A stretch of 64,000 nt of DNA, from assembly GCA_019058315.1 (NCBI GenBank), contig JAHPZH010000003.1, forward strand, positions 268,451 through 332,450, given 5' to 3'. The number at the start of each line of letters is the position of its first letter. The stretch's first letter is position 1. The notes beneath the pieces were generated by a model, which did not search any database, was not told the DNA's origin, and saw only the letters and a list, made by a program, of their open reading frames with translations. Source of the DNA: Candidatus Helarchaeota archaeon (GTDB lineage: Archaea > Asgardarchaeota > Lokiarchaeia > Helarchaeales > RDOG01). Shown here in pieces: positions 30,731-49,939 of the stretch. The translations under genes and the position numbers were made by a program.

Positions 30731-31156
30731 ATGTCCAATCCTGAAAATCCGGAAAATAAAGAGGATATGGAAGATGTTAAATCAATTGGATTTTTTCCCG
30801 AAGCAGAAATTCTGATTTTCCCAAATAGATTACTTGCAGAACACCATGTTGAGGAATTTTTAGAAAAAATAAAATCTGTAGAGGGAATTTCAAAAATTAT
30901 GTTAACAGGACCACGAATTTATGAGAATAGTTCTATTAAAATAGGATCCAAAACAATTCCCCTTAAAGTACAAGTCGGAAAGGTCATTATACAAATTGAA
31001 ACTGTTGATTTAATCAAAGATATTAGAGAAGTATGTGATAATTGTTTTAAATTTGGATATAGAATTGGTGTGGGGAGATACACAAAGTGGCGGGAAACCA
31101 CGATGGATTCCGTTAGAGGCTATTCTCTTGTAATCCGGAAAGATATGTTAGAGTGA
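30731..31156 (+). CDS. mcrD: Methyl-coenzyme M reductase operon protein D
   Basis: EILIFPNRLL...TGPR...IPLKVQVGKV...FGY...GRYTK..ET.MD matches McrD; adjacent to mcrC. ATG at 30731 preferred over TTG at 30701. Confidence 0.85.
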   Translation: MSNPENPENKEDMEDVKSIGFFPEAEILIFPNRLLAEHHVEEFLEKIKSVEGISKIMLTGPRIYENSSIKIGSKTIPLKVQVGKVIIQIETVDLIKDIREVCDNCFKFGYRIGVGRYTKWRETTMDSVRGYSLVIRKDMLE

Positions 31157-31165
31157 GTTGAATAT

Positions 31166-31819
31166 TTGGCCAGATTAAAAATTGGAAGGAAAACACAAGT
31201 TATCGACTGTAGAGAAACTGCAGGTTTAGGGCTTGGTGGAGGACTTGCCCAGAGAGATACTTTTTCTGAAGCCGAAGAACCAGATTTAATTGTGCTTTCA
31301 ATGGGGCCTAGTAATAGACATATCACAAAACCAGTTTGTGAAATTACTTACGGATTAAGAGAAGAGGGATTACAGACTTCTGTTATGGTTATGCGAGCAG
31401 GTGTGGGAGGTTCAGAAGATCGTCCATTAGCAGGGGGTGGAATTTCTGGAATTAGCCCACATGAAGAGAAGAAGATGCGTAAACATAAATTAGCAATAAT
31501 TCATTTAGGAAATGTCTTTAGACATTTTGTTTATAAAGCGCGTAATTATTTGAGAAATGTGGAAATTCCAGCAATTATTGTATGTCAAGCCCCAGTTGGA
31601 TTTGAAGATTTCGCTAAAGTCGGAGTTCTAACGGAAAAGTTCCATCCTGATGAATTTAATGTCCCCAAGATTAACCATACAAAAGGTAAAGTTGTGGATA
31701 TTGTAACTGGTGTAATTAGAGGGCAAACTTGTCCCCAATCAAAAATAAATGAAATTATAGAAAAAGTAAATTATTGGTTAAATGTAATAAAATTAGAAGA
31801 AAAAAAGAATAATAAATGA
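31166..31819 (+). CDS. mcrC: Methyl-coenzyme M reductase operon protein C
   Basis: IGRKTQVIDCRE..GLG.GGGLAQR, RHITKPVCEITYGLRE, HLGNV, VCQAPV.FEDFA and GVIRGQTCP. Confidence 0.95.
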   Translation: MARLKIGRKTQVIDCRETAGLGLGGGLAQRDTFSEAEEPDLIVLSMGPSNRHITKPVCEITYGLREEGLQTSVMVMRAGVGGSEDRPLAGGGISGISPHEEKKMRKHKLAIIHLGNVFRHFVYKARNYLRNVEIPAIIVCQAPVGFEDFAKVGVLTEKFHPDEFNVPKINHTKGKVVDIVTGVIRGQTCPQSKINEIIEKVNYWLNVIKLEEKKNNK

Positions 31820-31824
31820 TATTT

Positions 31825-32103
31825 TTATCCATTTAGATATATAACACCAGTTCCTCCAGCGGGATATGAAAAATCTATTGCTCCTGCTTCGCAAACTGAA
31901 AAACATGCAGCACATTCTAGACAGTTTTCTTTGTAATCATCTCTTAATTTTGCTATTCCCCCACGCATTTGCCAAAGATTAACAACGCAAACAATTGTAC
32001 ATTTTCTACATCCAATGCATTTATCTTCATTTAATTTAATAAAATCCCCTGTATCTCCTGGGGCTCGTTGAGATATTTTTTTTAATTCAATATTCAAATT
32101 CAT
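31825..32103 (-). CDS. FixX-like ferredoxin
   Basis: CIGCRKCTIVC, CLECAACFSVC and YPAGGTGV.Y C-terminus typical of FixX. Confidence 0.88.
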   Translation of the reverse strand: MNLNIELKKISQRAPGDTGDFIKLNEDKCIGCRKCTIVCVVNLWQMRGGIAKLRDDYKENCLECAACFSVCEAGAIDFSYPAGGTGVIYLNG

Positions 32104-32112
32104 TACCTCATC

Positions 32113-33513
32113 CTATTTTTTCTTTTTTGGACGCATATTTTCTAACATTTTCATCAATAGGGGAAACGTCGAAGCATTTTCTTCCATTATATCTGATAAA
32201 ACAGGCATTCCATATTTCATCATGAATGGAATAGCTTCAGGTAAATATTCTTGGATTTTATTGAGAATTTGGCGGAATCTTACAATATGAGGTTCACTCC
32301 AATCATAATGTGCTCCATTCATTTCAACATGAAGAGGAATAAACCATTCCATATTATTTTTTTCTGATTGTGTGCTGAAAAATAAATTTTTCCATAGTGT
32401 TTGTAAGCTTTCACCAGCTTGAAATTCAATTCCAACTGATGATTCTTTCCACTTATCTTCATATAATTTCAAGTTCTTTTTTGAAGTATCGCCTTCTGAA
32501 ATTGCCTTTATTGCTACCTCAGCTGCCAGTTTTCCTGTTTCCATCGCAGGATATACTCCTTCTGCCTCGAGTGGGCATGGAAATCCACCAGCATCACCAA
32601 TTAACATGACATTATCGGTATAAGTCTTAATTGGTTCTTTAGTCCAAGGTAATAAATGAGATTGTACTTCACGTGGCTTTGCATCAATTGCTTTTATCAT
32701 TCGTTGAAAGGGTTTTGAACCAACTAGTTGATTAATATAGCTTATTGGATTCTTTATCCATTGACCCATCCATGACCCAAGTCCTATGTGAAATCCATCT
32801 CCAAAAATTACTTGATATGCAGCAGGAAAAGTAACTCCCCACCAGATTCCATCAGCTGCATTAGCAAGGACACCATCTGGACCGTAGATTTTATCGATTT
32901 TTTCTCTATCAGCAGAGAAATCGTATTGTGGAACTAATGTAATTTGATCAGAACGCCATCGGGGATTGAGACCTGAAAACCGTGCTACTGTTGAAATTAC
33001 TCCATCTGCACCAATTATAATTTTGCCAAGTATTTTATCCCCTTTTTCGGTTTGAACCCCAATAACCTTTCCAGCATCATCTTTAACTAATCTTTTAATT
33101 AACATAGAGGTTTTTAGCTCCGCTCCTGCATCTGTCGCAAATTTCGCAAGCCAAGGGTCAAATTCAGAACGATAAGCATTCATTGTTATAAATTTCTTAG
33201 CAGGATCATAAGTTACACTATCTGTAGGATAGTACATCTCAATAGCTCGTTCTTTTAAGTCTTTATCCAAATAATGGTTCATAACACAACTTGCCATTCG
33301 CATTGATGGTACTACATCCGGTTTTAATTCCTTCATAATATTGGGAAATTCTCGCCACATACGAGGACCTAGTCCGCATCCAGATGCGTTTTTCTCACCG
33401 GGTTTACGACCTCGTTCGAAAAAGACTGTTTTCAACCCAGCTTCTGCAGCAACCTTCGCCGTTATCGAACCTCCAGGACCAGCACCTACAATTATAACAT
33501 CATAACCAGACAA
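32113..33513 (-). CDS. FixC/geranylgeranyl-reductase family FAD oxidoreductase
   Basis: VGAGPGG, ERGRKPGEKNASG, RSEFDPWLA, GADG and IGDAGG; paired with the FixX-like gene. Confidence 0.85.
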   Translation of the reverse strand: MSGYDVIIVGAGPGGSITAKVAAEAGLKTVFFERGRKPGEKNASGCGLGPRMWREFPNIMKELKPDVVPSMRMASCVMNHYLDKDLKERAIEMYYPTDSVTYDPAKKFITMNAYRSEFDPWLAKFATDAGAELKTSMLIKRLVKDDAGKVIGVQTEKGDKILGKIIIGADGVISTVARFSGLNPRWRSDQITLVPQYDFSADREKIDKIYGPDGVLANAADGIWWGVTFPAAYQVIFGDGFHIGLGSWMGQWIKNPISYINQLVGSKPFQRMIKAIDAKPREVQSHLLPWTKEPIKTYTDNVMLIGDAGGFPCPLEAEGVYPAMETGKLAAEVAIKAISEGDTSKKNLKLYEDKWKESSVGIEFQAGESLQTLWKNLFFSTQSEKNNMEWFIPLHVEMNGAHYDWSEPHIVRFRQILNKIQEYLPEAIPFMMKYGMPVLSDIMEENASTFPLLMKMLENMRPKKKK

Positions 33514-33853: not shown

Positions 33854-34891
33854 ATGGTCGAAATTATAGATGAGGCTGAAAAAAAAGCTATTGAAGTATT
33901 AAAGAAAAGATGTCATTTGGGAGAAGATGGATTCAAAACTAAAAATGGACATATAGAAATTCTTTGGTTAACTGATAGAAAATTAACAACACTTCCAGAT
34001 TCATTCAAAGATCTTAAATCACTCATTCATCTAGATTTGAGTCGTAATGATTTTACGACCATTCCTGAGACAATATTCGAGTTAAAATCGCTTAAAACTC
34101 TAAGTTTAGGTGGTAATCTGTTAACAATTCTCCCAGAGTCATTTGGAAATTTAAAATCGCTCCAAGAACTATTTTTAGGCTATAATCAATTAAAGACACT
34201 TCCAGAATCATTTTGTGGTCTAGAATCAATTTATTGGTTATATTTAGATGGTAATAAGTTAACAACTCTCCCAGATAGCTTTGGAGAACTAAAGTCACTC
34301 AATACACTGGCTATCCAAAAAAATCAATTAACAACCCTTCCGGAATCATTTGGAAATCTAAAATCGCTTCAAGTACTAAAAATTCATTTTAATAAATTAA
34401 CGACTCTCCCAGAGTCTTTTTGCAACCTAAAATCACTTAAAGAATTACAGATTCATTTCAATAAGTTAACAACTCTCCCGAAGTCATTTGGAAAACTAAA
34501 ATTCCTCGAAAAATTATTTATCAATAATAATCAGTTAAGTACTCTCCCGGAGTCATTTGGGCAACTAGAATCGCTCCAAGAACTATATTTAGGTTATAAC
34601 CAGTTAACGAATCTCCCGAAGCCTATAATTGAGTTAAAATCACTACAAAAACTATATTTGAGTAACAATCAGTTAAGTAATCTTTCGAAATCATTTGGAG
34701 ATCTAAAAGCACTAAGAGAATTAAATTTAGGTAATAATAAGTTAAAAAAACTCCCTGAGGAGTTAGGTGATTTGGATCAACTAACTTTTCTTAATTTAGA
34801 AGGTAATCCCTTATCAGAAAATGACAAGGAAATATATAGACAAGGAACAAATGCAGTAGTTCAATATTGTAAAAAAAAATTAGAAAGATAA
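33854..34891 (+). CDS. Leucine-rich repeat protein (23-aa repeats)
   Basis: About 12 repeats of LxxLxLxxNxLTTLPESFGxLxS; C-cap LEGNPL...GTNAVVQYC. Confidence 0.95.
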   Translation: MVEIIDEAEKKAIEVLKKRCHLGEDGFKTKNGHIEILWLTDRKLTTLPDSFKDLKSLIHLDLSRNDFTTIPETIFELKSLKTLSLGGNLLTILPESFGNLKSLQELFLGYNQLKTLPESFCGLESIYWLYLDGNKLTTLPDSFGELKSLNTLAIQKNQLTTLPESFGNLKSLQVLKIHFNKLTTLPESFCNLKSLKELQIHFNKLTTLPKSFGKLKFLEKLFINNNQLSTLPESFGQLESLQELYLGYNQLTNLPKPIIELKSLQKLYLSNNQLSNLSKSFGDLKALRELNLGNNKLKKLPEELGDLDQLTFLNLEGNPLSENDKEIYRQGTNAVVQYCKKKLER

Positions 34892-34989
34892 AAAAGGAAA
34901 CATAAAGAATCAAAAAAGTTGGAGAAAGAATGTTATAGAGAGCTTGAAGAATATATCGATTTTCATAGAAAATTATATAGTTTGAAATT

Positions 34990-37197
34990 TTATATCGATT
35001 TAAGAGCTTTTATTTTATCAGTTATCTCCCGAACCCTCTCATTTAATTTTTGCAACTCAGATAATTTAACTCCAGGACTGTTTTTTTGGACTTTTATATT
35101 TTCTAATTCATCAACAAATCTTTTTAATTTCAAATTCTTACAATACTCAATTACTTCTGGAGTACTTCGTCCACTTAATTTTTCATCTTTTTTTGTAAAT
35201 TTATTATACATGAGATTTAACATTTTAAGTTGTGTAAGATGTTCTAAATTCTTGATTTCTGTAATTTGATTTCTTTGAAGTTGTAAAGAAAATAATTGTG
35301 TTAATTTCTCTAAATTCTTGATTTCTGTAATTTGATTTTCTTGAAGTTCTAAATGTTTTAATTCGGTTAGATTATCCAAATTCTTGATTTCTGTAATGTT
35401 ATTCTCTCCAAGAAATAAATTCTCTAATTTAATCAGATGTTCTAAATTCTTAATTTCTCTAATTTGATTTCTATTAAGTTTTAATATTTTTAATTGTGTT
35501 AATTTTTCTAAATTCTTGATTTCTATAATTTGATTATCATTAAGCCACATTCTTTGGAGCTGGGTAAGAGTCTCTAAATTCTTGATTTCTGTAATTTGAT
35601 TATTGTGTAGAAATAATTTTTGGAGTTGTGTAAGATTTTCCAAATTCTTGATTTCTGTAATTTGATTATCTTGAAGAGATAATTCTTTAAGTTGGGTTAG
35701 ATTTTCTAAATCTTTAATTTCCAAGATTTGATTAAATTGAAGAGTTAATGTTTGAAGTTGTGTTAATTTTTCTAAATTCTTGATTTCTGTAATTTTATTT
35801 CCATAAAGACATAAACTTTGGAGTTGGGTAAGCTTTTCTAAATTCTTGATTTCTGTAATTTGATTATCATGAAGACATAAACTTTGGAGTTTTGTAAGCT
35901 TTTCTAAATTCTTGATTTCTGTAATTTGATTTTTATAAAGACATAATCTTTGAAGTTGGGTAAGTCTTTCTAAATTTTTTATTTCTTTAATTTGATTTTT
36001 ATAAAGTTCTAAACTTTTTAATTCAGTCAGATTTTCCAAATTCTTGATTTCTGTAATTTGATTATCGTCAAGAGATAATTCTTTAAGTTGAGTCAGATTT
36101 TCCAATTTCTTAATTTCTGTAATTTGATTACGACTAAGCCATAATAATTTTAATTGGGTAAGCTTATCTAAATTCTTGATTTCTGTAATTTGATTAATAA
36201 AAAGCTTTAATATTTTTAATTGGATTAGATTATTTAAATTCTTGATTTCTTTAATTCTATTTATCTGAAGATATAATCTTTCTAGTTGTAGAAGATTATC
36301 TAAATTCTTAATTTCTGTAATTTGATTCCGAGAAAGGTCTAATAATTTTAATTGGATTAGATTTTCTAAATTTTTAATTTCCAAGATTTCATTAGAGAAA
36401 AGATTTAATGTTTGAAGTTGTGTTAGTTTTTCTAAATTCTTGATTTCTGTAATTTGATTCCCATGAAGATATAGTCTTTCTAGTTGGATAAGATTATCTA
36501 AGTTCTTAATTTCTGTAATTTGATTATCGCTAAGATCCAATTCTTTAAGTTGAGTCAGATTTTCTAAATTCTTAATTTCTGTAATTCGATTCGCTCCGAG
36601 GTATAAGACTTTGAGATTTTTAAGATTTACCAAATTCTTGATTTCAGTAATTGTATTTTTCTGAAGAAATAATCTTTTTAATTGTGTAAGATTATCTAAA
36701 TTCTTGATTTCCGTAATTTCATTGCCAAAAAGATCTAATTTTTGGAGTTTTGTAAGCTTTTCTAAATTCTCTATTTCTGTTATTTGATTTCGACTAAGCA
36801 CTAATGTTTTTAATTGTGTTAATTTTTCTAAATTCTTGATTTTTGTAATTCGATTTCCAAAGGATAAATCAGGTTTTTTTAATGGTATTTCCAAATACTT
36901 GGTTTGTGTAATTGGTTTTCCAAGGTATAATTCCTGTAATTGTGTTAGCTTTTCTAAATTCTTGATTTTTGTAATTTGATTATCGGTAAGATCTAACCTT
37001 TGAAGTTGTGTAAGATGGTCCAAATTGTTAATTTCTGTAATTTTATTACGACTTAGATCTAAATATTGAAGTTGAGTTTGATTTTCAAATCCCTTAATTT
37101 CTGAAATATCTTGAATTCCTAAATTAGTAAGGATAAGCGCTCTATATCCAATTTTCATTTCTACTTTGTGAATTTTTCCTTTATATTCAACAGACAT
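34990..37197 (-). CDS. SDS22-type leucine-rich repeat protein (~28 x 22 aa)
   Basis: QLxxLxLxxNQITEIKNLExLT repeats; helical C-terminus. Confidence 0.95.
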   Translation of the reverse strand: MSVEYKGKIHKVEMKIGYRALILTNLGIQDISEIKGFENQTQLQYLDLSRNKITEINNLDHLTQLQRLDLTDNQITKIKNLEKLTQLQELYLGKPITQTKYLEIPLKKPDLSFGNRITKIKNLEKLTQLKTLVLSRNQITEIENLEKLTKLQKLDLFGNEITEIKNLDNLTQLKRLFLQKNTITEIKNLVNLKNLKVLYLGANRITEIKNLENLTQLKELDLSDNQITEIKNLDNLIQLERLYLHGNQITEIKNLEKLTQLQTLNLFSNEILEIKNLENLIQLKLLDLSRNQITEIKNLDNLLQLERLYLQINRIKEIKNLNNLIQLKILKLFINQITEIKNLDKLTQLKLLWLSRNQITEIKKLENLTQLKELSLDDNQITEIKNLENLTELKSLELYKNQIKEIKNLERLTQLQRLCLYKNQITEIKNLEKLTKLQSLCLHDNQITEIKNLEKLTQLQSLCLYGNKITEIKNLEKLTQLQTLTLQFNQILEIKDLENLTQLKELSLQDNQITEIKNLENLTQLQKLFLHNNQITEIKNLETLTQLQRMWLNDNQIIEIKNLEKLTQLKILKLNRNQIREIKNLEHLIKLENLFLGENNITEIKNLDNLTELKHLELQENQITEIKNLEKLTQLFSLQLQRNQITEIKNLEHLTQLKMLNLMYNKFTKKDEKLSGRSTPEVIEYCKNLKLKRFVDELENIKVQKNSPGVKLSELQKLNERVREITDKIKALKSI

Positions 37198-38230
37198 ATT
37201 CTTCTACTTTTTTACCAATCTTTTTTTTATTATTAAAATTAAGATTGGAGGATTTTTATTTTTTCAATAATCTCCTGAGCCCTCTCATTTAATTTCTGTA
37301 ATTCGGATAATTTAACTTCAGGACTGTTTATTCGGGAATTTATATATTCTAATTCGTCAAAATATTTTTTTAATTCCTTCTTTTTAGCAAGTTCTTTTAA
37401 TTTTAGATTCTTACAATGCTCAATTACTGCTTTAATACCTCTCCAACGTAATTTTTTACTATTTTCTGTAAATTTATTTCCCCAAATGGTTAATTCTTTG
37501 AGTAGTATGAGATTTTCTAAATTCTTGATTTCTCTAATTTGATTATCGCTAAGATCTAATACTCTTAGTCTAGTAAGATTTTCTAAGTTCTTTATTTCTG
37601 TAATTTGATTATTATCCAAATATAATTTTTGAAGTTTGGTCAGGTTTTCTAAATTCTTTATTTCCTTAATTTGATTTTCACCAAGCTGTAAATATTGTAA
37701 TTGCGTTAGATTATCCAAATTCTTGATTTCTGTAATTTTATTAGCATTAAGTTTCAATTCTTCTAATTGCTTTAATTTTTCTAAATTCTTAATCTCTGTA
37801 ATTTCATTTTTCCAAAGTTCTAAAGTTTTTAATTGAGTTAGATTATCCAAATTTTTGATTTCTGTAATTCTATTTTGAGTAAGATTCAGATAATTGAGTT
37901 GTGCTAGATTATCTAAATTCTTGATTTCTGTAATTTGATTCCCATGAAGATATAAGATTTCGAGTTGGGTGAGATTATTCAAATTCTTGATTTCTGTAAT
38001 CTGATTATTACTAAGCTTTAATCCTATTAATTGTGTTAATTTCTCTAAATTCTTGATTTTTGTAATTTCATTTTTCCAAAGTTCTAATGTTCTTAATTGA
38101 GTCAAATTATCTAAATTTTTGATTTCTGTAATTTGATTATCACTAAGTTCTAATCTTTTTAATTGTGTTAGATTATCCAAATTCTTAATTTCTGTAATTT
38201 TATTATTTCTAAGATTTAAGAATTGAAGTT
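35210..38230 (-). repeat. 66-bp periodic coding repeat of the two SDS22-type LRR genes
   Basis: aaattcttgatttctgtaatttgatt recurs at 66-bp spacing in both genes. Confidence 0.9.
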
Positions 38231-38354
38231 TATTTTGCTTTTCTAATCTCTTAATTTCTGATATATCTTGAATTCCTAATCCTTTAAGGTCAATGGTTAT
38301 GTATCCATATTTATATTCAACTTTATGAACTTTTCCTTTATATTTTACAGACAT
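37239..38354 (-). CDS. SDS22-type leucine-rich repeat protein (~12 x 22 aa), tandem paralogue of 34990-37197
   Basis: Same repeat framework; shared N-cap (MSVxYKGKxHKVE...LGIQDISEIK) and C-terminus (NSPxVKLSELQKLNER). Confidence 0.95.
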   Translation of the reverse strand: MSVKYKGKVHKVEYKYGYITIDLKGLGIQDISEIKRLEKQNKLQFLNLRNNKITEIKNLDNLTQLKRLELSDNQITEIKNLDNLTQLRTLELWKNEITKIKNLEKLTQLIGLKLSNNQITEIKNLNNLTQLEILYLHGNQITEIKNLDNLAQLNYLNLTQNRITEIKNLDNLTQLKTLELWKNEITEIKNLEKLKQLEELKLNANKITEIKNLDNLTQLQYLQLGENQIKEIKNLENLTKLQKLYLDNNQITEIKNLENLTRLRVLDLSDNQIREIKNLENLILLKELTIWGNKFTENSKKLRWRGIKAVIEHCKNLKLKELAKKKELKKYFDELEYINSRINSPEVKLSELQKLNERAQEIIEKIKILQS

Positions 38355-39226: not shown

Positions 39227-40705
39227 TTGACTGAAGAAAGAATCATAACCATTCTCCAGCAAATTGTTGGAGAAGATAGGGCAACTGCTGATGATGCTGA
39301 GATGATCGCATACTCCAGAGACCAGCATTACATGTTTAATAAACCTATGATTCCAAATTACGTAGTAAAACCGATAAATAAAGGTCAAATAAAACAAATT
39401 TTAAGTCTAGCAAATCGCCATAGAATACCAATTGTACCTTTAGCACAAGGAGTTAACATCAGAGGATTGTGCATCCCAACAGAGGGAGGCATAATATTAG
39501 ATATGAGAAATATGAACCAGATAAAAGAAATAAACCTTGAAATGATGACAGCTACAATTGAGCCAGGAGTTTCTGTAGGACAATTAGTAGCGGCATGCAG
39601 AAAATTAGGAGTTAGACCTGCGATTCCAGGGTCCCCCGCAACAGTTAGTGCATTTGCGAATTATATGCTAAGAGGAGTCTATCATTCCAATCCCTTGGAT
39701 GGAATTGATCATGTACTTTGTATGGAGATTATGTTACCTACAGGTGAGACTATAAAAACTGGATCAAGTGCAATTACGACCTCCTATGGACCATATTGTA
39801 GATGGTTTGGACCTGACCTAACTGGTTTATTTCAAGGTGTTCCTGGAGCCTTTGGAATAATAGTTGAAATGACTGTTAAATTATATGATTTTCCAGAAGA
39901 ATCAAGATTTTTGGGTTATGGATTTGATACATGGGAAAAAGCAACTGAATTTGCTATGGAAGTCCAGCGTCGAGTTATCCCCAATTTGATGTGGCTTATT
40001 GATTGGTTAGCTCTCACAGTTGTAAGTGGAATGTTTAAAAGAAAGGACATAATGGAGAAATCCACTAAAGCATCGATGCCCCATTGTACTGTTCCTGTTT
40101 TAATTGAAGGTGAAAAAGACTTAGTTGATTTTAAGTTAAATCGGCTAAAACAAATCCTGGAAAAGGTCCCTCCCGACAGACAACCACTAACGGACATAGA
40201 TACTGCAATTCAACAACCTGAAAGTGGTGGTACAGGTCAAGGAATGAGCTCTGAAGAATTCCTCGGTGGTCGTAATGTCGCAGGAATGTTAAAAATGGGT
40301 TATTATTTTGCGTTAGCTTTTTTTCATCCCCTTAAGACAGGACCAGAGTTATTCAAAATTTTTAAGGATGTCGGTGAGGATAATGGATTTGATAGAGATA
40401 TTGTTTCGTTTGTTTCTACACCAACAGCTACAGGAGCGAACAATTGGTCAGGACAATGTACTTATTCAGAAGGAGAATTATTTGTGGACCAAACAGAACC
40501 AGGTATGATGGATAAATTACGGAAGTTTAGTACACAAAGTATCCAGAAAATCTTAGATGCAAAGTTGATATACTCTTGGTTTAGACCATATGCCCAAGTC
40601 CTTGAAATTACATTAGATAGGGCAGGCGCAACAGGACTTTTCTTAAGAAAGCTTAAAAACTTAATAGATCCGAACAATATCATGAACCCAGGAAAATTTC
40701 TATAG
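39227..40705 (+). CDS. FAD-binding oxidoreductase, GlcD/D-lactate dehydrogenase family
   Basis: GGIILDMRNMNQIKEIN, EPGV, GPDLTGLF.G..GAFGIIVE and C-terminal DPNNIMNPGK. Confidence 0.92.
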   Translation: MTEERIITILQQIVGEDRATADDAEMIAYSRDQHYMFNKPMIPNYVVKPINKGQIKQILSLANRHRIPIVPLAQGVNIRGLCIPTEGGIILDMRNMNQIKEINLEMMTATIEPGVSVGQLVAACRKLGVRPAIPGSPATVSAFANYMLRGVYHSNPLDGIDHVLCMEIMLPTGETIKTGSSAITTSYGPYCRWFGPDLTGLFQGVPGAFGIIVEMTVKLYDFPEESRFLGYGFDTWEKATEFAMEVQRRVIPNLMWLIDWLALTVVSGMFKRKDIMEKSTKASMPHCTVPVLIEGEKDLVDFKLNRLKQILEKVPPDRQPLTDIDTAIQQPESGGTGQGMSSEEFLGGRNVAGMLKMGYYFALAFFHPLKTGPELFKIFKDVGEDNGFDRDIVSFVSTPTATGANNWSGQCTYSEGELFVDQTEPGMMDKLRKFSTQSIQKILDAKLIYSWFRPYAQVLEITLDRAGATGLFLRKLKNLIDPNNIMNPGKFL

Positions 40706-40715
40706 GAGGAATATT

Positions 40716-41903
40716 ATGTCTCTTGATTTATTAGAAAAATATTCTAAAATTGTTTATTACTGTTCACACTGTCGATTATGCTCTATAGCAAACTACCATC
40801 TTTTAAAAGATTGGGTTCCTATTTGTCCCTCAGGCGAATATTTCAAATTTGAAAGTTATTTCTCCTCGGGAAGAATGGAATTAATACGTGGATTATTAGA
40901 AGGAGAACTCAAACGCACTAAAACTGAAACTATAATGAAAATAGCATTCGGCTGCCAAGTTTGTGGAGGTTGTTATACACAGTGCTCAGATCACACAGCC
41001 TTAGGAGAAACTCAGCAACAGGTGGAAACCTTTGAGGATTTAAGAACTGCACTTGTTGATATGTATGGAGCATTACCTAAACATCAAGAATTAGCTGATG
41101 ATACTACTAAGGACCATAATCCCTATAAGGATAGCAATAATAATCGTTTCAATTGGTTAGAGGGAAAAAATATTCCCGCAGGGTCAAAAACAATCTATTT
41201 TGCAGGTTGCACCGCCTCATTTCGGGAGCAAGAAATTGCTAAAGCTACTGTCAACCTGCTAGAAGCGGTAGGGCAAGATTTTTCTATTCTTGGACCAGAT
41301 GAATGGTGTTGTGGATCTCCACTTCTTAGAACAGGGCAGAGAAAAGTTGCGATGCCTCTCATTGAACATAATTATAATATATTAAAAGAAAGAGGGATTG
41401 AAAGAATAATAACAAGTTGTGCTGGCTGTTATCAGACCATTAAAAACGATTATCCCAAATTTTTAGGTAAGAAATTGGATATTAAAATTGTCCACTCTGT
41501 CCAATTTTTCCAAAATAAAATTAAAAGTGGAGAGTTGAAATTAAAAGGAAAAGATCTTAAAATTACTTATCATGACCCCTGCCATATTGCTAGACATGCA
41601 AACATTAGAAAAGCTCCACGTAAAGTAATAGAAGCCATACCTAATATAAAATTTGAAGAATTTCAACGGAATAAAAAGAATGCTTGGTGTTGCGGAGCAG
41701 GTGGTGGAGTTAAGAAAGCTTTTGGCGATTTTGCAAATTGGACAGCTAATCAACGAATACTAGAAGCGGATAAAATTAAAGATTTACAAGCTATCGTATC
41801 AACATGCCCTTTCTGTAAAAATAATTTAAAACAAGCTGTTGAAAGAATGGGTCGAAAATATAGAGTAATGGACTTAACTGAGTTATTGCAAGAGTGTATA
41901 TAA
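40716..41903 (+). CDS. HdrD/GlcF-like Fe-S protein with two CCG domains
   Basis: CSHCRLC...CP, CQVCGGCYTQC, YFAGC, WCCGSP, SCAGC, YHDPCH, WCCGAGGG and TCPFC. Confidence 0.92.
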   Translation: MSLDLLEKYSKIVYYCSHCRLCSIANYHLLKDWVPICPSGEYFKFESYFSSGRMELIRGLLEGELKRTKTETIMKIAFGCQVCGGCYTQCSDHTALGETQQQVETFEDLRTALVDMYGALPKHQELADDTTKDHNPYKDSNNNRFNWLEGKNIPAGSKTIYFAGCTASFREQEIAKATVNLLEAVGQDFSILGPDEWCCGSPLLRTGQRKVAMPLIEHNYNILKERGIERIITSCAGCYQTIKNDYPKFLGKKLDIKIVHSVQFFQNKIKSGELKLKGKDLKITYHDPCHIARHANIRKAPRKVIEAIPNIKFEEFQRNKKNAWCCGAGGGVKKAFGDFANWTANQRILEADKIKDLQAIVSTCPFCKNNLKQAVERMGRKYRVMDLTELLQECI

Positions 41904-42262: not shown

Positions 42263-42358
42263 AACCTTTCTCTCCTAGCGTTTTATTCTAATATATTTTA
42301 TAATTTTTTTATTTTTCATTGATGCTTTCTTTTATAAAAATTTAAAAATTACTGAATA

Positions 42359-43168
42359 TCATTTCTCTAATTTTTGAAATTCCCATAAATCAATCTCATT
42401 TTCACAGACGGGACAAGATGCTTTTACTTTTATCCATTCCAAAAACTCGGTCTTATGAAGTTTAGTTCCACAAAATGGACAAATTGCAGTAGCTTCTTCA
42501 CTTTTTATATAATTTTGGCAAATTGCGCAAATACTTATTTTTAAACCACAATTAACGCAAAATTTTGCATCCTTTTGAATTAGTTCAAAACAATTTGGAC
42601 ATGTATTTTCCAATTCTTTTTCGATTGGACTTTCTCTAATAGGAATCAGATATGCTTCTTCTCTTTCAACTTCGCCAGGAGTTTCAGTCCGTTTCAATAT
42701 ATAGAAAGCTGATGATCCAGATATGAATTGACTAACAATTAATAAAATACGTAAATTGGAGGAATTGAGAGTTTGAATTCCACTATTAAAAATAAATATT
42801 AACAAATAAAAAATCAAGATTTCACGGATATCACTAGTTTCTATTAAAAAAATATAAAATAAGGTATTTGATAAAGTCTGGAAGCGAATCCAATACATAT
42901 TGTAAATGGAACCTATTAATAGCATATTCCATATTATTAAACCTAATATAAATCCTGTTTTTACATAATTTCTAAATTTAACTTCATCCGAATCGTTTAC
43001 AAAGAGAAATGAAACAATTATATCAAATATCCCTAATATTAAACTGAATAAAAAAGACCCACCACGTACTATAAAGGTCAATATTATAGATATCAAAACA
43101 TTAAAAAACCCCAGAACTTTTATTTTTGTAAATTCCTCCATAATTTCCACACTTATACTGATTTTCAA
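42359..43168 (-). CDS. Membrane protein with C-terminal zinc ribbon and RING-like finger
   Basis: Several TM segments; CPNC...CVNC; CAIC...CPFC...H...EW....CPVC. Confidence 0.8.
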   Translation of the reverse strand: MKISISVEIMEEFTKIKVLGFFNVLISIILTFIVRGGSFLFSLILGIFDIIVSFLFVNDSDEVKFRNYVKTGFILGLIIWNMLLIGSIYNMYWIRFQTLSNTLFYIFLIETSDIREILIFYLLIFIFNSGIQTLNSSNLRILLIVSQFISGSSAFYILKRTETPGEVEREEAYLIPIRESPIEKELENTCPNCFELIQKDAKFCVNCGLKISICAICQNYIKSEEATAICPFCGTKLHKTEFLEWIKVKASCPVCENEIDLWEFQKLEK

Positions 43169-43311
43169 AAATATAATATATTACATAATTCACAAAAATT
43201 TTAAATTATTTTATTTTGAAAATGTACCTAAAATAAGGCATTTCTTTAAATAAAAATAAATTTAATTGTGGTTATAATAAATTTTATTTTATTTTTGAAA
43301 GAGGAATTACC

Positions 43312-44703
43312 ATGAAGTATAAAGATAAAATTGATTTATACGATGGAAGAAACAATTGCATAGCTTCAGACATTCCATTAGAAGCAATATCACCATTACA
43401 TAATCCATATATTAAAAAAGTGCTTAATTTTGTTAAACGCACTTCTATTATTAATTTGGGAAAGCTTCAGAATGTAATGAAAAAAGGTACAGTCGGTGTT
43501 ATGACGGCAGTTAAACAAGATGAATGTAAAGTTATGAACACATTAGATATACCCATAGTTAAAGATGCTCCAGAGATTGCTGAACGTATTAAGAAACTAA
43601 TTGAGGTCCCAAATTATAATGGGACTCCTGATGATACAGAAGTTTTTCTGTGTGGTAATAATGAAATTATGCTTGTTAAAATGCCAAAAGCTAGGATGGA
43701 TTTAGCTGCTAGTAGAGATGTAGTATATACTTTTCCTGGTCAAGCTCTAGCTCAAGTGCTATCAGAAATGTATGATATTAACCCAGAAACAAATCCAGAC
43801 CATTGTGGTCTTATAAAAACTGCATTGTATGGAAGATATCCCCAAACTGTTCAATTTGCACCAGGAAACGTTATGGGCGCTTTTTTAAACCCCCCACAGA
43901 CTCAAGAGGGGGTTGGAATCGGATATAGGTTAACAACAATAAATAATATTGTAGCATTGACAGATAAAATTACTTTAGACGCAGTAGCGCTATGTTCAAT
44001 TCTAGAACAGGGCTGCCAATTAGAAACTGGTAATGCCGCAGGTTGGTATGAACGTTACTGTTTGCTGGGTATGGCATATCAAGGACTTAACGCAAATAAT
44101 ATTGTTATGGATTTTGTAATAGAGAATAAATCAGGAACAGTTGGAGATGTTATTCGCTCACTTATGGAACGAGCTATTAATGATGGTATTATTAAACAAA
44201 AAGGAGAAAAATATCCAGATATCTTATTCTCGGGTTACAAACTATATTCAACTTCAGATCCTTCATTATGGAATGCATATAATTGCACAGGGTTGTTAGC
44301 TGCATCTATTATTAATGTAGGAGCAAGTCGTGCAGCACAGTGTGTATCCGCAGTATTAGGTGCATATCCCGATTTAATAGCTTTTGAATCAGGAGGTTTG
44401 CCAGATCCCGATTTCGGTCGTATTATGGGAACTGGACTCGGGTTTTGTTTCTATACACATTCAATTTATGGCGGAGCTGGACCTGGAGCTTTTTCTCTTG
44501 ATCACGTATTAGTCCGTCACACCTCTGGGTTCTTCACTCCATGTGTTGCTGCAGCTATGTGCTTGGATGCGGGAACCCAAGTTTTTAGCCCAGAAGTAAC
44601 AAGTGGAAGTATGTTTAAGATTAAAGAGGTAATTGATATCTTTAAAAATCCATTAAATAAAGTCGCCGAGGCGGCGGAGGAGATAAAATCTAAAATAAAG
44701 TAG
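43312..44703 (+). CDS. mcrB: Methyl/alkyl-coenzyme M reductase beta subunit
   Basis: YKDKIDLYD, PLEAISPLHNP, GRYPQT, AYQGLNANN, GLPDPDFGR, THSIYGGAGPG and CLDAGTQVFSPEVTSG; GAGG SD. Confidence 0.97.
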   Translation: MKYKDKIDLYDGRNNCIASDIPLEAISPLHNPYIKKVLNFVKRTSIINLGKLQNVMKKGTVGVMTAVKQDECKVMNTLDIPIVKDAPEIAERIKKLIEVPNYNGTPDDTEVFLCGNNEIMLVKMPKARMDLAASRDVVYTFPGQALAQVLSEMYDINPETNPDHCGLIKTALYGRYPQTVQFAPGNVMGAFLNPPQTQEGVGIGYRLTTINNIVALTDKITLDAVALCSILEQGCQLETGNAAGWYERYCLLGMAYQGLNANNIVMDFVIENKSGTVGDVIRSLMERAINDGIIKQKGEKYPDILFSGYKLYSTSDPSLWNAYNCTGLLAASIINVGASRAAQCVSAVLGAYPDLIAFESGGLPDPDFGRIMGTGLGFCFYTHSIYGGAGPGAFSLDHVLVRHTSGFFTPCVAAAMCLDAGTQVFSPEVTSGSMFKIKEVIDIFKNPLNKVAEAAEEIKSKIK

Positions 44704-44704
44704 G

Positions 44705-45514
44705 GTGATTATTATTCCTGAAGAAAAACCAAAAGATAAAATAAAGTATCAGAGACAATTTTATCCTGGAACGGAAAAAGTATCTGAACGCAGAAGAAAA
44801 ATCATGGATCCTAATCGTAGATTAGTTAAATTGCGTGATATTCCAGATGACGATATTATCCTTTTACTTGGACATAGAGCTCCAGGGGCTTTATATGCTA
44901 GTGTTCACCCTCCATTGGATGAGATTTTAGAACACGAAGACCCAATTAAGTCAATAGTAGAACCAACTCCTGGTGCAAGGGCTGGTGATCGAATGCGGTT
45001 TGTTCAATTTACAGATTCTTTCTGGAGACCTCCATTTGCACCTTGGTTGCGAGCTAGAACATATTTCACTCGGTTTAGGGGGCTGGATACAGTTATTTAT
45101 TCAGGGCGACAACTTTTAGAAATGCGTGAAAGAGACTTAGAAGCTACCACCAAACTCCTTATAGAAACAGAAGTTTTCGATCCCGCTCGGACTGCACTTC
45201 GAGGAATCACAGTTCATGGACATGCATTACGTTTAGACTCCGATGGATTGATGTTTGACGCACGGAGGAGATATATTTATGATAAAGACATAGACGAAGT
45301 TGTTTATCATAAAAATATGAATGCCGAAGTTCTAGATATCCCTGTACCTGTCGGTAGACCTATGTCAGATGAGGAACTACAAGAATATGACGTTACATAC
45401 CGTTGGGATACTACAGCATATAAAAGCCGAACAGAATTGCTCATGATAGTCACGCGAATAACAAGAATGCGCATCTTGGGTGGTTTTAAACCAGATTTAG
45501 TTGCAAATATGTAA
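44705..45514 (+). CDS. mcrG: Methyl/alkyl-coenzyme M reductase gamma subunit
   Basis: QFYPG, LGHRAPG..Y.SVHPPL, PTPGARAGDR.RFVQFTDS, SGRQ..E.RERDLE and RGITVHGHALRL..DGLMFD. Confidence 0.97.
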   Translation: MIIIPEEKPKDKIKYQRQFYPGTEKVSERRRKIMDPNRRLVKLRDIPDDDIILLLGHRAPGALYASVHPPLDEILEHEDPIKSIVEPTPGARAGDRMRFVQFTDSFWRPPFAPWLRARTYFTRFRGLDTVIYSGRQLLEMRERDLEATTKLLIETEVFDPARTALRGITVHGHALRLDSDGLMFDARRRYIYDKDIDEVVYHKNMNAEVLDIPVPVGRPMSDEELQEYDVTYRWDTTAYKSRTELLMIVTRITRMRILGGFKPDLVANM

Positions 45515-45551
45515 AATTTTTTTTCCTATTTTTTTAATGATTTTAAAAAGC

Positions 45552-47957
45552 CTACTGAATTTCTTTTCGTTGTTTAGTGCTAGGAAATCCCTTTCGAAGC
45601 CATCCTATCATCCCACCGATTAGGTTTCGAACATCTTTAAAACCCGCTTGAGCTAATAGTCGAGCTGCCATCATCGATCTCATTCCAGAATGACATATTG
45701 TTACGATTTCTTTATCCTTAAATTCATTAAATTCTTCAATTTTATTCATTAATTCGCCCAGTGGAATTAATTTAGAACTTTTAATATGCCCTTCTGGACC
45801 GTAATATTCCTCTGGAGATCTTACATCTATAAGAAGGTCTGGCTTATCATCTGTTTCAAGACGTTCAAATAATTCATTTGGTTCTATATCTGATAAAGCT
45901 GGGGAATCAGGTCTTCTTAATTCTTTTCTAGAAATTTTGGGTAGTTTAACTGGTGCAATAACATCATCTTTCGAAATTTTACCTTTTTGTAATATTGCTA
46001 CTATTTTTCCCATACTTTTTTCGAGATTTAATAGTTTAATATTATCTGTTAATTTAACATATGCTTCTACACTTGATTTAAAACCTGGATCTGTTGCGAA
46101 AATTTTTAATTTCTTTTCACTTTCCTCAGGAAGTGTTTCAAGACCTTTTATTAGAGCATTCAATGGACCAGGACAGCTCAAACCACTAGCATCAATTTCA
46201 ATAAATTCATTACTTTCTTGAGATTTATCTTTGATAAATTCCTCCATAATTTCTTGAGGACTACCACATGCATTTATGATTTCCTCAGTTGTTGCCCTCG
46301 CCATTTCAAAAAGTCTAAATCCACCAGTTAAATTATAAACTTCTTTAAAGCCATTTAGTAATAACATTCTCGATGCCAAATAACTTCTAAAACCAGTTTC
46401 GCAAAACACATAGATTGGTTTATTCCTAGGAATTTCATCTAATCTTTTTCGTAATTCATCTACATGGATATTAATAGCGGCTTCTATAGGTCTTGTCTTA
46501 AATTCTGCTGGTGTTCTAACATCTAGAATAAAACCACCATTTTCTTTAATTTTTTCATAATCATGATAATGCCAAATTGGCATATCACCTTTAATAAAAT
46601 TTGAAGCTATAAAGCCAGCCATATTTATAGGATCCTTAGCCGAACTATAGGGTGGAGCATAAGATAATTCTAATTCTTCCAGATCGAAAACTGTTCCTCC
46701 CATTTTTATTATCGTTGAAATTATATCTATCCTTTTTTCAGCTCCAGAACCGCCAACAATTTGAGCACCTAAAATTTTTCCAGAAGACTTATTGAAGATT
46801 AATTTGAATGCTAATGGAACTGCACCTGGATAATAACCTGCATGATTATTAGGATGAAGAAATATTTTTTCATATTCATTTCCATTATTTTTTAATGTTT
46901 TTTCAGTTAAACCTACAAAAGCAGCAGTAAGATCGAAGATTTTAACAACAGAAGCACCTAATGCCCCATTATATTCTGAATCTCGACCAGCAATATTATT
47001 TGCAGCAATTCTTCCTTGCTTATTAGCAGGTCCTGCTAATGGAACCAGAGTAGGCTCATTTGTTTGAAGATTTAAAATTTGTACAGCATCTCCAACAGCA
47101 TAAATATGAGGATCTGACGTTTGCATTTGTTTATTGACTATTATATGTCCTCTAGGACTCATTTTGAGGTTTGAATCTTTAAGAAAAGCAGTTTCAGGTT
47201 TTATACCAATTGACATAATAATTAAATCAGTTTCGATTATTCTACCACTTCTAGTTTTAACATAAGGTCTATTTTTTTCAGTTCGTCCAAAAGAATCAAC
47301 CCCATCTTCTAATACCAAGCAAATTCCATTTAAAATTAATTCTTGATGGATAAATTGACACATTTCTTTGTCCATAGGAGGCATAACTTGGTCTAACATT
47401 TCAACTATTTTTACTTTCACTCCCATTTGACGTAAGTTCTCCGCAATCTCTAGACCAATAAATCCTCCTCCTATAACAACTACGTGTTCTGGTTTTTTAT
47501 TATCTACATAATTCCTAATAGCCACTGCATCAGGAATTGTTTTTAAGGTGAAAATCGGAACATCATCAATTCCGGGTAAATTTGGTCTTATTGCTCTAGC
47601 CCCTGGTGATAAAATAAGATAATCGTAGGATAGATCATACTCAGATTTATTTTTTAGATCTTTAATTTTAACTTGTTTATTATTTTGGTCTACTGAAATA
47701 GCTTCATGATTAATACGGACGTCAATATTATATCTATTGAGAAATCTTGAAATTGGTACTAATTCTAATGCCTTACGATCTTTGATATCACCACCTATAT
47801 AATAAGGCAGACCACAATTTGCAAATGATACATATGATCCTTTTTCAATCATTATTATATCAAAATCTTCATTAAGTCGGCGCAATCTAGCAGCAGCAGA
47901 TGCTCCACCTGCCACACCACCTATAATTACCACTTTTACCATTTTATCATTCCACAA
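45552..47957 (-). CDS. CoA-disulfide/persulfide reductase fused to rhodanese, TusA-like and a second rhodanese domain
   Basis: GGVAGGASAAARLRR, SFANCGLPY, GGGFIGLE, YAPPYSSAKDP; rhodanese loops FCETGFRS and ICHSGMRS; TusA motif IDASGLSCPGP...ATDPG. Confidence 0.93.
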   Translation of the reverse strand: MWNDKMVKVVIIGGVAGGASAAARLRRLNEDFDIIMIEKGSYVSFANCGLPYYIGGDIKDRKALELVPISRFLNRYNIDVRINHEAISVDQNNKQVKIKDLKNKSEYDLSYDYLILSPGARAIRPNLPGIDDVPIFTLKTIPDAVAIRNYVDNKKPEHVVVIGGGFIGLEIAENLRQMGVKVKIVEMLDQVMPPMDKEMCQFIHQELILNGICLVLEDGVDSFGRTEKNRPYVKTRSGRIIETDLIIMSIGIKPETAFLKDSNLKMSPRGHIIVNKQMQTSDPHIYAVGDAVQILNLQTNEPTLVPLAGPANKQGRIAANNIAGRDSEYNGALGASVVKIFDLTAAFVGLTEKTLKNNGNEYEKIFLHPNNHAGYYPGAVPLAFKLIFNKSSGKILGAQIVGGSGAEKRIDIISTIIKMGGTVFDLEELELSYAPPYSSAKDPINMAGFIASNFIKGDMPIWHYHDYEKIKENGGFILDVRTPAEFKTRPIEAAINIHVDELRKRLDEIPRNKPIYVFCETGFRSYLASRMLLLNGFKEVYNLTGGFRLFEMARATTEEIINACGSPQEIMEEFIKDKSQESNEFIEIDASGLSCPGPLNALIKGLETLPEESEKKLKIFATDPGFKSSVEAYVKLTDNIKLLNLEKSMGKIVAILQKGKISKDDVIAPVKLPKISRKELRRPDSPALSDIEPNELFERLETDDKPDLLIDVRSPEEYYGPEGHIKSSKLIPLGELMNKIEEFNEFKDKEIVTICHSGMRSMMAARLLAQAGFKDVRNLIGGMIGWLRKGFPSTKQRKEIQ

Positions 47958-48118
47958 TTTAGGAAATAAGAATAATATTTTCTAATAAGTAAAGATTTTA
48001 TATATATAATTCTTCTAATGAAGGAATTAAAAAAAATAGAATGCTCTTAATGTATTTAAAATGTATTTAAATTATGATTTTAAACAGAATTATAAATTCA
48101 AAAAAAATAAAAAAAGTT

Positions 48119-49939
48119 TTAGTGTGCTGGAACTATTAAATCACGTTCTCCAGCAGGTTTGAATTGTCTCAAGCATGCTTTTGCTAATGAAACTCGCGGA
48201 TTCTTAAAATCAAAGATTAAATCACGATCTGCGAATGCTACTTTTATAACTGGACTTACTGCATATGCTCTACCTCTACCTTGAGCCGCGGCCATCACAG
48301 CAGCAATTTGACCAGCTGAATGTCCCGCGGTATATGATCGAACCGGAAAATTCGGACCAGCAAATTCAAGAAGCCCACCTTCATCCATTCGGAAAGAACA
48401 TGAATATGGAAGTCCTACATGATCTTGAACTTCTTGTCCTGCCCAACCAGTTCTTACCCAACCCTCTTTCATCAACATTCCAATTGCATAATTCTGACCC
48501 TGAACACCAATTATTGGTGACCCTGTCATCATTGCAACTCCAGCTCCACCCAAAGCACCTATTACGGAAATTCGGTGAGCTCCACCCCAATGGAACTCCA
48601 TAAGAGATGGATATTTCTCATATTGTTCCATAGCTGCTTGAATCAACATGTCTATCATGAATTTCACTCTTTCCCATTTTGGAGGGATCCTAGGAATCTT
48701 AAACATAGAACGATTTTGTACCTCTGTAAATGATTCAAGCAAATCTTCCATAACATTACCGCAATATGCCCCTGCTGCCACAGCAGTTGAGAAACCTAAT
48801 CCACCAGACATATAAAATCCGTAATTCAACAATTCGGTCATAACAGCAGCTATAATGCCTAAACCCTTTGACATTTCGCGTTGTCTAGTTTTTGCATCAT
48901 CTAAATCTTCTTGTACCACTTCCCAATAAGCTCTAGCAGGCAACATCGCATCCGCTTGTTGGATATCTGCTAAAAAACCGTATGAGATTCCAGTGGGTTC
49001 ATTTTGTCCACGAGCTCTACTGAACCAAGTACGTTCACCCATATTTATAAGGCATGCAGATTTAGCAGCATATGCAATATCAGATATGATACTTTCACCT
49101 GTGAGCCTATAAGAGGATATAAATGACATCGAAGATTGCATGGCTGCCCATCTATAAACAACAGCACCATCAGCCATACGAACTGCAATTGTAGGTATAC
49201 GGACAGCTATGTATATTGTATCCCCAATATCACGTTTTAACATCTCAGCTTTAGTTGGATGAAACTCTTGATCAATATTAATGACAAATCTTCTATCTAT
49301 ATTGTCCACGAAATCGTCATTGCCAGTAATAACCTTAGCATGTGCATCATAGGTTAATCCAGGGTGAATTTCAGCCATATGTTCTTGAGCCACCGCACCT
49401 CCAGCTACTGTGTGTTGTAATGTTTCCAGATAAAGATTTACTGTTTCAGGTGTGATTTCCTTACCTGCTCTTACTTGTAAAACTCGATGTGGGATATCTA
49501 AATTCAAAATAACTGTACGTTTAATATCGTCAAGTAATTGCTGAATTGCAGCATTATTAACATGATGTAAATCGTCATAATCTACTATCACATCAGTCCC
49601 GCTTATAATATATGGCTCTAAAGCCCTCTGTCCTAGTGGAATACCGACTGCTCTGTTGTAAGCAGGTATTCCTCTTTCCTTTGCTATTTTCTTTCCCCAT
49701 TCGGAAAATTCTTTCTTACGCCCACTTTGACGAATTCCACCACGATGATACATTAGAGGGTCCATAGTTGATAATGGATGGATTCCATAAATTTTTTCCA
49801 TAGTTTTATAGATTAAACGGTCTTCCTCATTAGGAAGGAACTTCTGTGCCAACTTAGATAAATTATATTTATATTCTGTCTCTTTTGCAATCCTTTTTTT
49901 TCCAAATGCAAGATCTTTTCTTTTGGCCAAAAAAATCAC
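48119..49939 (-). CDS. mcrA: Alkyl/methyl-coenzyme M reductase alpha subunit (divergent, Acr-type)
   Basis: RGIPAYN, DDLHHVNNAAIQQ..DDIKRT, GKEITPETVNLYLE, GGAVAQEHMAE, RWAAMQ, RARGQNEP, YMSGGLGF, KVAFAD and FKPAGERDLIVPAH. The true start may be TTG at 49930. Confidence 0.97.
   Translation of the reverse strand: MIFLAKRKDLAFGKKRIAKETEYKYNLSKLAQKFLPNEEDRLIYKTMEKIYGIHPLSTMDPLMYHRGGIRQSGRKKEFSEWGKKIAKERGIPAYNRAVGIPLGQRALEPYIISGTDVIVDYDDLHHVNNAAIQQLLDDIKRTVILNLDIPHRVLQVRAGKEITPETVNLYLETLQHTVAGGAVAQEHMAEIHPGLTYDAHAKVITGNDDFVDNIDRRFVINIDQEFHPTKAEMLKRDIGDTIYIAVRIPTIAVRMADGAVVYRWAAMQSSMSFISSYRLTGESIISDIAYAAKSACLINMGERTWFSRARGQNEPTGISYGFLADIQQADAMLPARAYWEVVQEDLDDAKTRQREMSKGLGIIAAVMTELLNYGFYMSGGLGFSTAVAAGAYCGNVMEDLLESFTEVQNRSMFKIPRIPPKWERVKFMIDMLIQAAMEQYEKYPSLMEFHWGGAHRISVIGALGGAGVAMMTGSPIIGVQGQNYAIGMLMKEGWVRTGWAGQEVQDHVGLPYSCSFRMDEGGLLEFAGPNFPVRSYTAGHSAGQIAAVMAAAQGRGRAYAVSPVIKVAFADRDLIFDFKNPRVSLAKACLRQFKPAGERDLIVPAH

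Follow-up and report, generated by a model that had tools for sequence, protein, structure and literature searches.

We analyzed a 64,000-nucleotide stretch of DNA (hereafter the window; G000:C11:268451-332450, where G000 is the host genome) from contig JAHPZH010000003.1 of a Candidatus Helarchaeota archaeon (GCA_019058315.1), which carries members of all five gene families of the methanogen operon mcrBDCGA for methyl-coenzyme M reductase (MCR). We found that these genes do not represent a new kind of system: they belong to a known Helarchaeales system of alkyl-coenzyme M reductase (Acr), with a lineage-specific inversion of the gene for the alpha subunit, mcrA. It is likely, in our view, that the window holds one of three Acr sets of this genome together with its sole mcrDC pair, that the set goes back to an ancestral operon in which mcrA was inverted, and that it is still used. 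The genes concerned are:

30701-31156, + strand: mcrD (PF02505, 83.5 bits, cut-off 25; TIGR03260, 80 bits, cut-off 100)
31166-31819, + strand: mcrC (TIGR03264, 265.8 bits, cut-off 213.5), starting 9 bp past mcrD
43312-44703, + strand: mcrB, or acrB (PF02241 and PF02783; TIGR03257, 424 bits, cut-off 516)
44705-45514, + strand: mcrG, or acrG (PF02240, 320 bits), 1 bp past mcrB
48119-49939, - strand: mcrA, or acrA (PF02745 and PF02249), inverted relative to mcrBG
51388-52008, + strand: scp2, for a predicted SCP2-fold protein, beyond mcrA and behind the gene of a Rho_N-domain protein (RhoN); conserved from about residue 55

The products of mcrA, mcrB and mcrG matched the Pfam families MCR_alpha_N/MCR_alpha, MCR_beta_N/MCR_beta and MCR_gamma (E values 1e-18 to 1e-101), and the reading frames of mcrD, mcrC, mcrB, mcrG and mcrA were all intact. 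A genome-wide search returned one copy of mcrD only, and mcrC is the sole true copy in the genome, the other MCR_C match being methanogenesis marker 7. Judged by its scores, McrD is a divergent member of its family, because it fell below the TIGR03260 cut-off despite the PF02505 match. The canonical mcrBDCGA operon contains the same five families, but in the window its contiguity and co-orientation are lost: the genes are spread over 19 kb in three units and on both strands, mcrD and mcrC are detached (11,493 bp separate the mcrC stop from the mcrB start), and mcrA runs the other way. The enzyme belongs to the Acr clade. These results agree with a first-pass annotation made from the sequence alone, which had listed the five families at these positions, a split into three units with mcrDC some 11.5 kb ahead of mcrBG, and retention of the accessory genes mcrC and mcrD. 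It had also described mcrA as converging on mcrBG. The minus strand and the convergent orientation were correct, but the two do not face each other directly, since a gene with CoA-disulfide reductase and rhodanese domains (CoADR, 45552-47957) lies between them. In addition, scp2 had been overlooked, although it is the sixth conserved member of the ancestral unit.

Inversion of mcrA across related lineages

The host genome shares its GTDB order with the type metagenome-assembled genome (MAG) Hel_GB_A from the Guaymas Basin (Seitz et al. 2019, PMC6478937) and therefore belongs to Helarchaeales, as first proposed; among the seven species compared it forms its own family (f1). Hel_GB_A contains an orthologous Acr set on contig SUPS01000008, which corresponds to G003:C8 in our collection (coordinates match and McrA is identical). 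Compared with the window, McrA, McrG and McrB of this set were 73%, 78% and 62% identical, respectively, the same scp2 was present, and a lone mcrDC pair was located on another contig. Synteny differed: in Hel_GB_A and in a second Helarchaeales genome, G001, the orthologous genes form a compact one-strand mcrB-mcrG-mcrA cluster followed by a gene of about 170 aa (scp2), whereas in the window mcrA is inverted, and the CoADR-rhodanese and Rho_N genes are interposed.

The convergent layout was found in related lineages. Sister lineage 1, represented by JGI contigs from three samples (L036, L037 and L063) and by NCBI L059 / GCA_054384095.1, shows the order mcrB mcrG 556-aa trypsin-like >< CoADR-rhodanese 320-aa mcrA <> RhoN (LRR) scp2 arginase, where >< and <> mark convergent and divergent neighbors and LRR stands for leucine-rich repeat; its McrA and McrB were 89-90% and 87% identical to those of the window. 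Sister lineage 2, represented by Logan contigs of two runs (L064 and L065), has the order Fd GGR glcD hdrD mcrB mcrG >< 62-aa 318-aa Band_7 mcrA in L064 (Fd, ferredoxin; GGR, geranylgeranyl-reductase-like flavoprotein), with McrB 84% identical. The arrangement mcrBG >< mcrA thus occurs in three related lineages including that of the window, in independent assemblies and with different genes in the gap, and this recurrence shows that the inversion is old and excludes a misassembly. On this comparison of sequences, only the inverted mcrA is lineage-specific, and the inversion appears to date to the common ancestor of the three lineages. A protein 97% identical to that of scp2 and the same downstream synteny were also found in GCA_013375355.1, a genome of the Costa Rica Margin series, which is therefore a very close relative.

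The host genome is a scaffolded MAG (94% complete) with 6.6% estimated contamination and a scaffold gap just ahead of the window, as might be expected if units had been misjoined, misinverted or drawn from different organisms during assembly or binning. However, the window itself is free of scaffold gaps, the nearest run of N ending one base before its start. Contigs of public runs bridge both junctions of the CoADR gene: one Logan contig, of the run from which the genome probably derives (X1), equals positions 42300-46097 without one difference and bridges mcrG and CoADR, and a contig of a different study covers 47610-48822, bridging CoADR and mcrA. Besides, the layout and its flanks (Fd, GGR, glcD, hdrD; RhoN, scp2, arginase) recur in JGI, NCBI and Logan relatives, and the independent contigs of the closest relatives do not show a one-strand mcrB-G-A. 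We regard an artefact of this type as extremely improbable.

In another study, strains 95-98% identical to the window (runs X2-X4) gave contigs that end on both sides of the mcrG/CoADR junction, one of which departs at about 45745; the convergent gap may vary between strains. Contigs of study P2 did not cover 45355-45745 (the end of mcrG and the end of CoADR). A joint from 45745 to 42789 with 37 foreign letters, present in runs X3 and X4, was dismissed as a chance match because its second side, at the end of a contig, is no longer than about 22 AT-rich letters; the 37 letters had no match in the genome.

The history that we propose begins with a compact operon mcrB-mcrG-mcrA-scp2, as in the orthologous set of Hel_GB_A. 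Then, in an ancestor shared by the window genome with two or more related lineages, mcrA would have been inverted, leaving mcrBG facing mcrA, and mcrA back-to-back with the RhoN gene and then scp2. The convergent gap would later have gathered different passengers in each lineage, here a CoADR-rhodanese-TusA gene. At present mcrBG and mcrA would be transcribed separately, each up to an oligo-T terminator-like signal, and their products would still assemble as an alpha2-beta2-gamma2 enzyme; the set would still be used, and the single-copy McrC and McrD, with atwA and mmp genes elsewhere, would serve all three sets of the genome.

Enzyme type, selection and transcription

Our analyses place the window enzyme in the Acr type, outside canonical MCR, as the first-pass annotation had proposed. 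In a careful maximum likelihood (ML) tree, the window McrA and a 90%-identical metagenome protein grouped together at 100/100, and this pair was sister to the copies of Hel_GB_A (C8) and G001 (C138) at 100/99. The Acr clade, which includes sequences labeled Helarchaeota, Bathyarchaeota BA1/BA2, Syntropharchaeia and Alkanophaga, was separated from the canonical MCR outgroup at 100/100, so that the alpha subunit did not fall in the canonical methane-MCR clade. Canonical equivalog cut-offs of NCBIfam were missed by both alpha (543 vs 768) and beta (424 vs 516). Moreover, McrA of the window has the active-site loop GWAGQEVQDH, common to Bathyarchaeota and Syntropharchaeia sequences, in place of the canonical GFYGYDLQDQC, and the glutamine motif VAQEH is preserved. 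We take the loop to be the region around the thioglycine position and the glutamine of VAQEH to be the axial ligand of F430. The alpha subunit could be aligned from end to end with solved MCRs and with ethyl-CoM reductase 7b1s, and it showed no unique change at the columns that were invariant in 35 other McrA sequences. The substrate would be a multi-carbon alkane. Roles of residues in the active-site loop and of the F430 axial glutamine have been described in part in PMC9118554, which also reports leucine at the axial position in a divergent Acr type. The most divergent Helarchaeales Acr type (G001:C154, G002:C15 and G006:C27) has leucine for this glutamine (LLEQ / LLDK); the window genome lacks this type.

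Between the window and the sister lineages, synonymous divergence (dS) was saturated (>1.5) and nonsynonymous divergence (dN) was 0.07-0.10. The dN/dS ratios were 0.02 for mcrA, 0.05-0.06 for mcrB, 0.056 for mcrG and 0.04-0.06 for scp2, which amounts to strong purifying selection on the Acr set since the inversion.

Some observations speak against an old inversion in a set that is still used. The terminal branch of the window McrA is about six times that of its sister (0.097 vs 0.016), and lineage-specific changes occur in conserved McrA segments, for example NEPTGISYG vs NEPGGIPYG of relatives. In the McrB and McrG trees, which have too little signal, the window copies were left in a polytomy, and their pairing with the Hel_GB_A C8 copies is by nearest distance only. 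The mcrG/CoADR junction was bridged by the probable source sample only. Finally, no repeats able to mediate an inversion were found; the flanks hold only AT-rich matches with 70-89% complementarity, which are chance-like. The longer McrA branch and the substitutions in conserved motifs would also fit a set that is being lost after the operon break, with the two other sets doing the work. However, the intact frames, the absence of unique deviations at invariant McrA columns, the dN/dS values of 0.02-0.06 at saturated synonymous sites and the preservation of the broken layout in three lineages make such decay very improbable, and are consistent with an inverted set that has been kept in use.

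Signals that may separate the transcripts were found directly behind both stop codons:

45517-45535, + strand: T8 and T7 runs, oligo-T terminator-like, directly 3' of the mcrG stop
48100-48115, - strand: T7 and T8 runs, oligo-T terminator-like, directly 3' of the mcrA stop

Oligo-T tracts terminate archaeal RNA polymerase, and two such T runs are found in 0.045% of the 30-nt windows of this sequence. Because the pairs directly follow the mcrG and mcrA stops, separate units are predicted; this argues for a bicistronic mcrBG and a monocistronic mcrA, with no co-transcription of mcrA and the CoADR gene. Separate transcription of mcrA is plausible in view of the opposite strand and the T runs, and its independent regulation, suggested in the first-pass annotation, is possible. 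A scan for bacterial promoters and terminators showed no enrichment over shuffles, the method being unsuited to archaea. A 10-bp palindrome upstream of mcrA, AGAGTACTCT, was considered as a shared regulatory motif and rejected: it occurs twice in the genome vs 5.5 times expected, the second copy lies inside an open reading frame with no flanking similarity, and the upstream regions are too AT-rich for motifs to be picked out by eye.

Three Acr sets and the SCP2-fold gene family

A search for additional mcrA copies revealed two sets beside that of the window. Genome counts were three each for mcrA, mcrB, mcrG and scp2, and one each for mcrC and mcrD. One further set, on C3, is compact (mcrB-G-A). 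The other, on C5, has the order mcrA-atwA-165aa-mcrB-mcrG-Fer4, and this split order recurs in Hel_GB_A (C94) and G001 (C7). It defines a second Helarchaeales Acr type, mcrA-(x)-atwA-scp2-mcrB-mcrG-Fer4, which resembles the window set in that alpha stands apart from beta/gamma, here as a stable state conserved in the order; it differs in that all genes are on one strand, the A2 activation ATPase is embedded, and the genes form another orthologue group (McrA 62% identical).

These further sets bear on the suggestion in the first-pass annotation that alpha is regulated on its own and could be swapped, and on the wider reading that it was split off for mixing with the beta/gamma subunits of other sets, which would widen the range of substrates. 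Paralogues do exist, mcrA stands on a strand of its own, with 367 bp of upstream sequence and a terminator-like signal to itself, and three lineages have retained the layout. However, with counts of 3:3:3:3 (A:B:G:scp2) there is no orphan alpha, and each alpha occurs with its own beta/gamma. The nearest relatives of A, B and G of the window are all in one Hel_GB_A cluster, and the third set groups consistently for the three subunits. We therefore see no support for alpha swapping, consider it and regulatory modularity of this kind improbable, and regard an inverted but otherwise coherent set as the better explanation.

How ordinary a split layout is can be judged from other genomes. An adjacent mcrD-mcrC pair stands alone on its contig in Hel_GB_A (G003) and G001, two of the three Helarchaeales genomes of family f2; in the third, G002, mcrD and mcrC are 7 kb apart. 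In Bathyarchaeota BA2 (LIHK01000056.1), whose Acr belongs to the sister clade, mcrA precedes mcrBG by about 8 kb and seven genes; SCP2-like genes flank mcrA, and glcD/hdrD-like and A2-type ABC ATPase genes lie nearby. Unlike the window, mcrA and mcrBG of BA2 are on the same strand and are separated by other genes, and the organism belongs to another phylum. Since the lone mcrDC, the C5-type split and the BA2 split all recur, a detached mcrDC and an alpha gene apart from beta/gamma are normal for the Acr clade. Most of the disassembly described in the first-pass annotation, although real, is thus usual, and its implications were overstated there. That annotation had also allowed for an arrangement already standard in described Helarchaeales, which is true of the lone mcrDC and the split; the inverted mcrA is absent from Hel_GB_A but occurs in three or more related lineages.

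Three MCR variants (Hel clusters I-III) have been reported from Costa Rica Margin Helarchaeota MAGs (Zhao & Biddle 2021, PMC9723726); these MAGs, like the window genome, have three divergent Acr sets each. The paper speaks of McrABG operons and, in the text consulted, describes neither gene order nor an inverted alpha gene. The present comparison documents Acr gene order in Asgard archaea more precisely than the cited papers, and it shows that an Acr locus which is broken and in part inverted can last in several lineages, with strong purifying selection acting on it. When mcr/acr operons are sought in metagenomes, neither contiguity nor a single strand should therefore be required, and a lone mcrA or mcrBG on a short contig need not mean an incomplete system. 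For heterologous expression, the minimal conserved neighborhood would be B, G, A and the SCP2-like gene, with the shared C/D, A2 and mmp genes. No new mechanism is revealed. The inversion reshuffled a known system long ago and without harm.

The scp2 family accompanies these sets closely. The genome has exactly three paralogues, each next to one of the mcr sets (51388-52008 (+) in the window, L013:12591-13097 and L014:11899-12396), and scp2 adjoins mcr genes in every examined Helarchaeales locus that extends past mcrA, either right behind mcrA or, in the atwA type, right in front of mcrB. An AlphaFold2 (AF2) model of the window product had a pLDDT of 75.5, and all 18 Foldseek matches in the PDB at E <= 1e-3 were of SCP2 type (TM by target 0.41-0.68); according to this model, the protein has the SCP2 alpha/beta fold. 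Pfam PF02036 was matched weakly by 3 of 13 family members (best E 0.003) and not by the window copy, and precomputed SCP2 (PF02036) matches are recorded for the BA2 relatives. Clustered at 90% identity, this small family gives 58 groups, and among 1.84 billion proteins 19 representatives were found at E < 1e-10. Acr genes are again the neighbors of its more distant members, both in Bathyarchaeota BA2 and in a compact cluster of the Bathyarchaeia type, mcrB-G-A-scp2. Our literature search found no paper that connects SCP2 or sterol carrier proteins to Acr or mcrA.

We tentatively suggest, as a possibility that is rather doubtful at present, that Acr of the Helarchaeales/Bathyarchaeia type has a dedicated fourth component in the SCP2-fold protein, a carrier that hands the hydrophobic alkane to the enzyme or takes the alkyl-CoM product from it. 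A complex prediction with McrA(40-606), McrG and SCP2-like(50-206) gave no answer (score 0.01) and speaks neither for nor against this role. In the lineage of the window, scp2 is under strong purifying selection though cut off from mcrA; if the suggestion were true, the broken locus would be a natural experiment in which alpha, beta/gamma and the carrier need no co-transcription.

Neighboring genes and host genome

The other features assigned in the window are listed below.

31825-32103, - strand: ferredoxin (Pfam/NCBIfam)
32113-33513, - strand: geranylgeranyl-reductase-like flavoprotein, GGR (Pfam/NCBIfam)
33854-38354, strand not assigned: three LRR genes (LRR Pfam matches)
39227-40705, + strand: GlcD-like FAD oxidase
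40716-41903, + strand: HdrD/TfrB-like CCG iron-sulfur protein
42359-43168, - strand: double-zinc-ribbon protein (PF12773), divergent from mcrB
45552-47957, - strand: fusion of CoA-disulfide reductase (CoADR), rhodanese, TusA and rhodanese, 801 aa
50307-51269, + strand: Rho_N-domain protein (RhoN), divergent from mcrA; conserved neighbor in sister lineage 1 and L056

In sister lineage 2 (L064), ferredoxin and GGR abut glcD-hdrD-mcrBG with no LRR genes between, the LRR genes of the window are missing at the same place in L064/L065, and no gene is found at the zinc-ribbon position in L064. Because the LRR and zinc-ribbon genes are absent from this lineage, the 11.5 kb spacing between mcrDC and mcrBG is in part a recent insertion. 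The LRR genes look like frequent insertions in the lineage of the window; in sister lineage 1, another LRR gene was inserted beside RhoN. The glcD/hdrD-like pair recurs beside Acr genes in L040, L046, L064 and BA2 (L066). A Pfam search with the passenger genes of the sister loci and the BA2 neighbors returned no families.

The CoADR-rhodanese-TusA gene begins 161 bp past mcrA, and 37 bp separate its 3' end from the mcrG stop. Its position on the same strand as mcrA, its presence near mcrA in sister lineage 1 (L036, L037 and L063) and the lack of a second full-length copy in the genome could be taken to mean that it serves Acr, as a sulfur relay for thioglycine or in thiol/persulfide recycling, and is co-expressed with mcrA. 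Against such coupling, oligo-T runs directly follow the mcrA stop, and in sister lineage 1 a 320-aa gene on the opposite strand separates CoADR from mcrA. Similarly, the gap of sister lineage 2 (L064) contains Band_7 and other genes of unassigned type instead, which suggests normal Acr maturation without CoADR there, and the gene is absent from the orthologous clusters of Hel_GB_A and G001 and from the other two sets of the window genome. A functional link is thus unlikely. The gene accompanies mcrA in sister lineage 1 but does not do so in Hel_GB_A or sister lineage 2, the behavior of variable cargo and not of a fixed Acr partner. An Rfam search of the window found no RNA family. At its start, an open frame of at least 1322 aa (1-3966, minus strand) runs off the window into the scaffold gap.

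The gene complement of the host supports the alkane oxidizer proposed in the first-pass annotation and fits the published Helarchaeota genotype (PMC6478937): no MtrA was found in the genome at 94% completeness, CdhC is present together with 15 acyl-CoA dehydrogenase matches, and mmp15-mmp17-mmp7 lie about 70 kb past the window end. Two atwA genes (component A2) are present, one inside the C5 set (L014:10296-11897; TIGR03269, 672 bits) and one on C7 (G000:C7:251012-252583), which is 62% identical to the C5 copy.

Two minor observations concern the other sets of this genome. Proteins P0012 and P0016, deposited at NCBI under 'Candidatus Hodarchaeota archaeon', are nearly identical to the McrA copies of C3 and C5 (tree distances 0.03-0.04), and this label probably hides a Helarchaeales relative. 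Besides, a family of about 345-415 aa with no Pfam/NCBIfam match has some 35 paralogues genome-wide (for example L013:6138-8357, L014:5416-8085 and C11:335050-336222), and its members flank two of the three mcr clusters of the window genome as well as clusters of Hel_GB_A.

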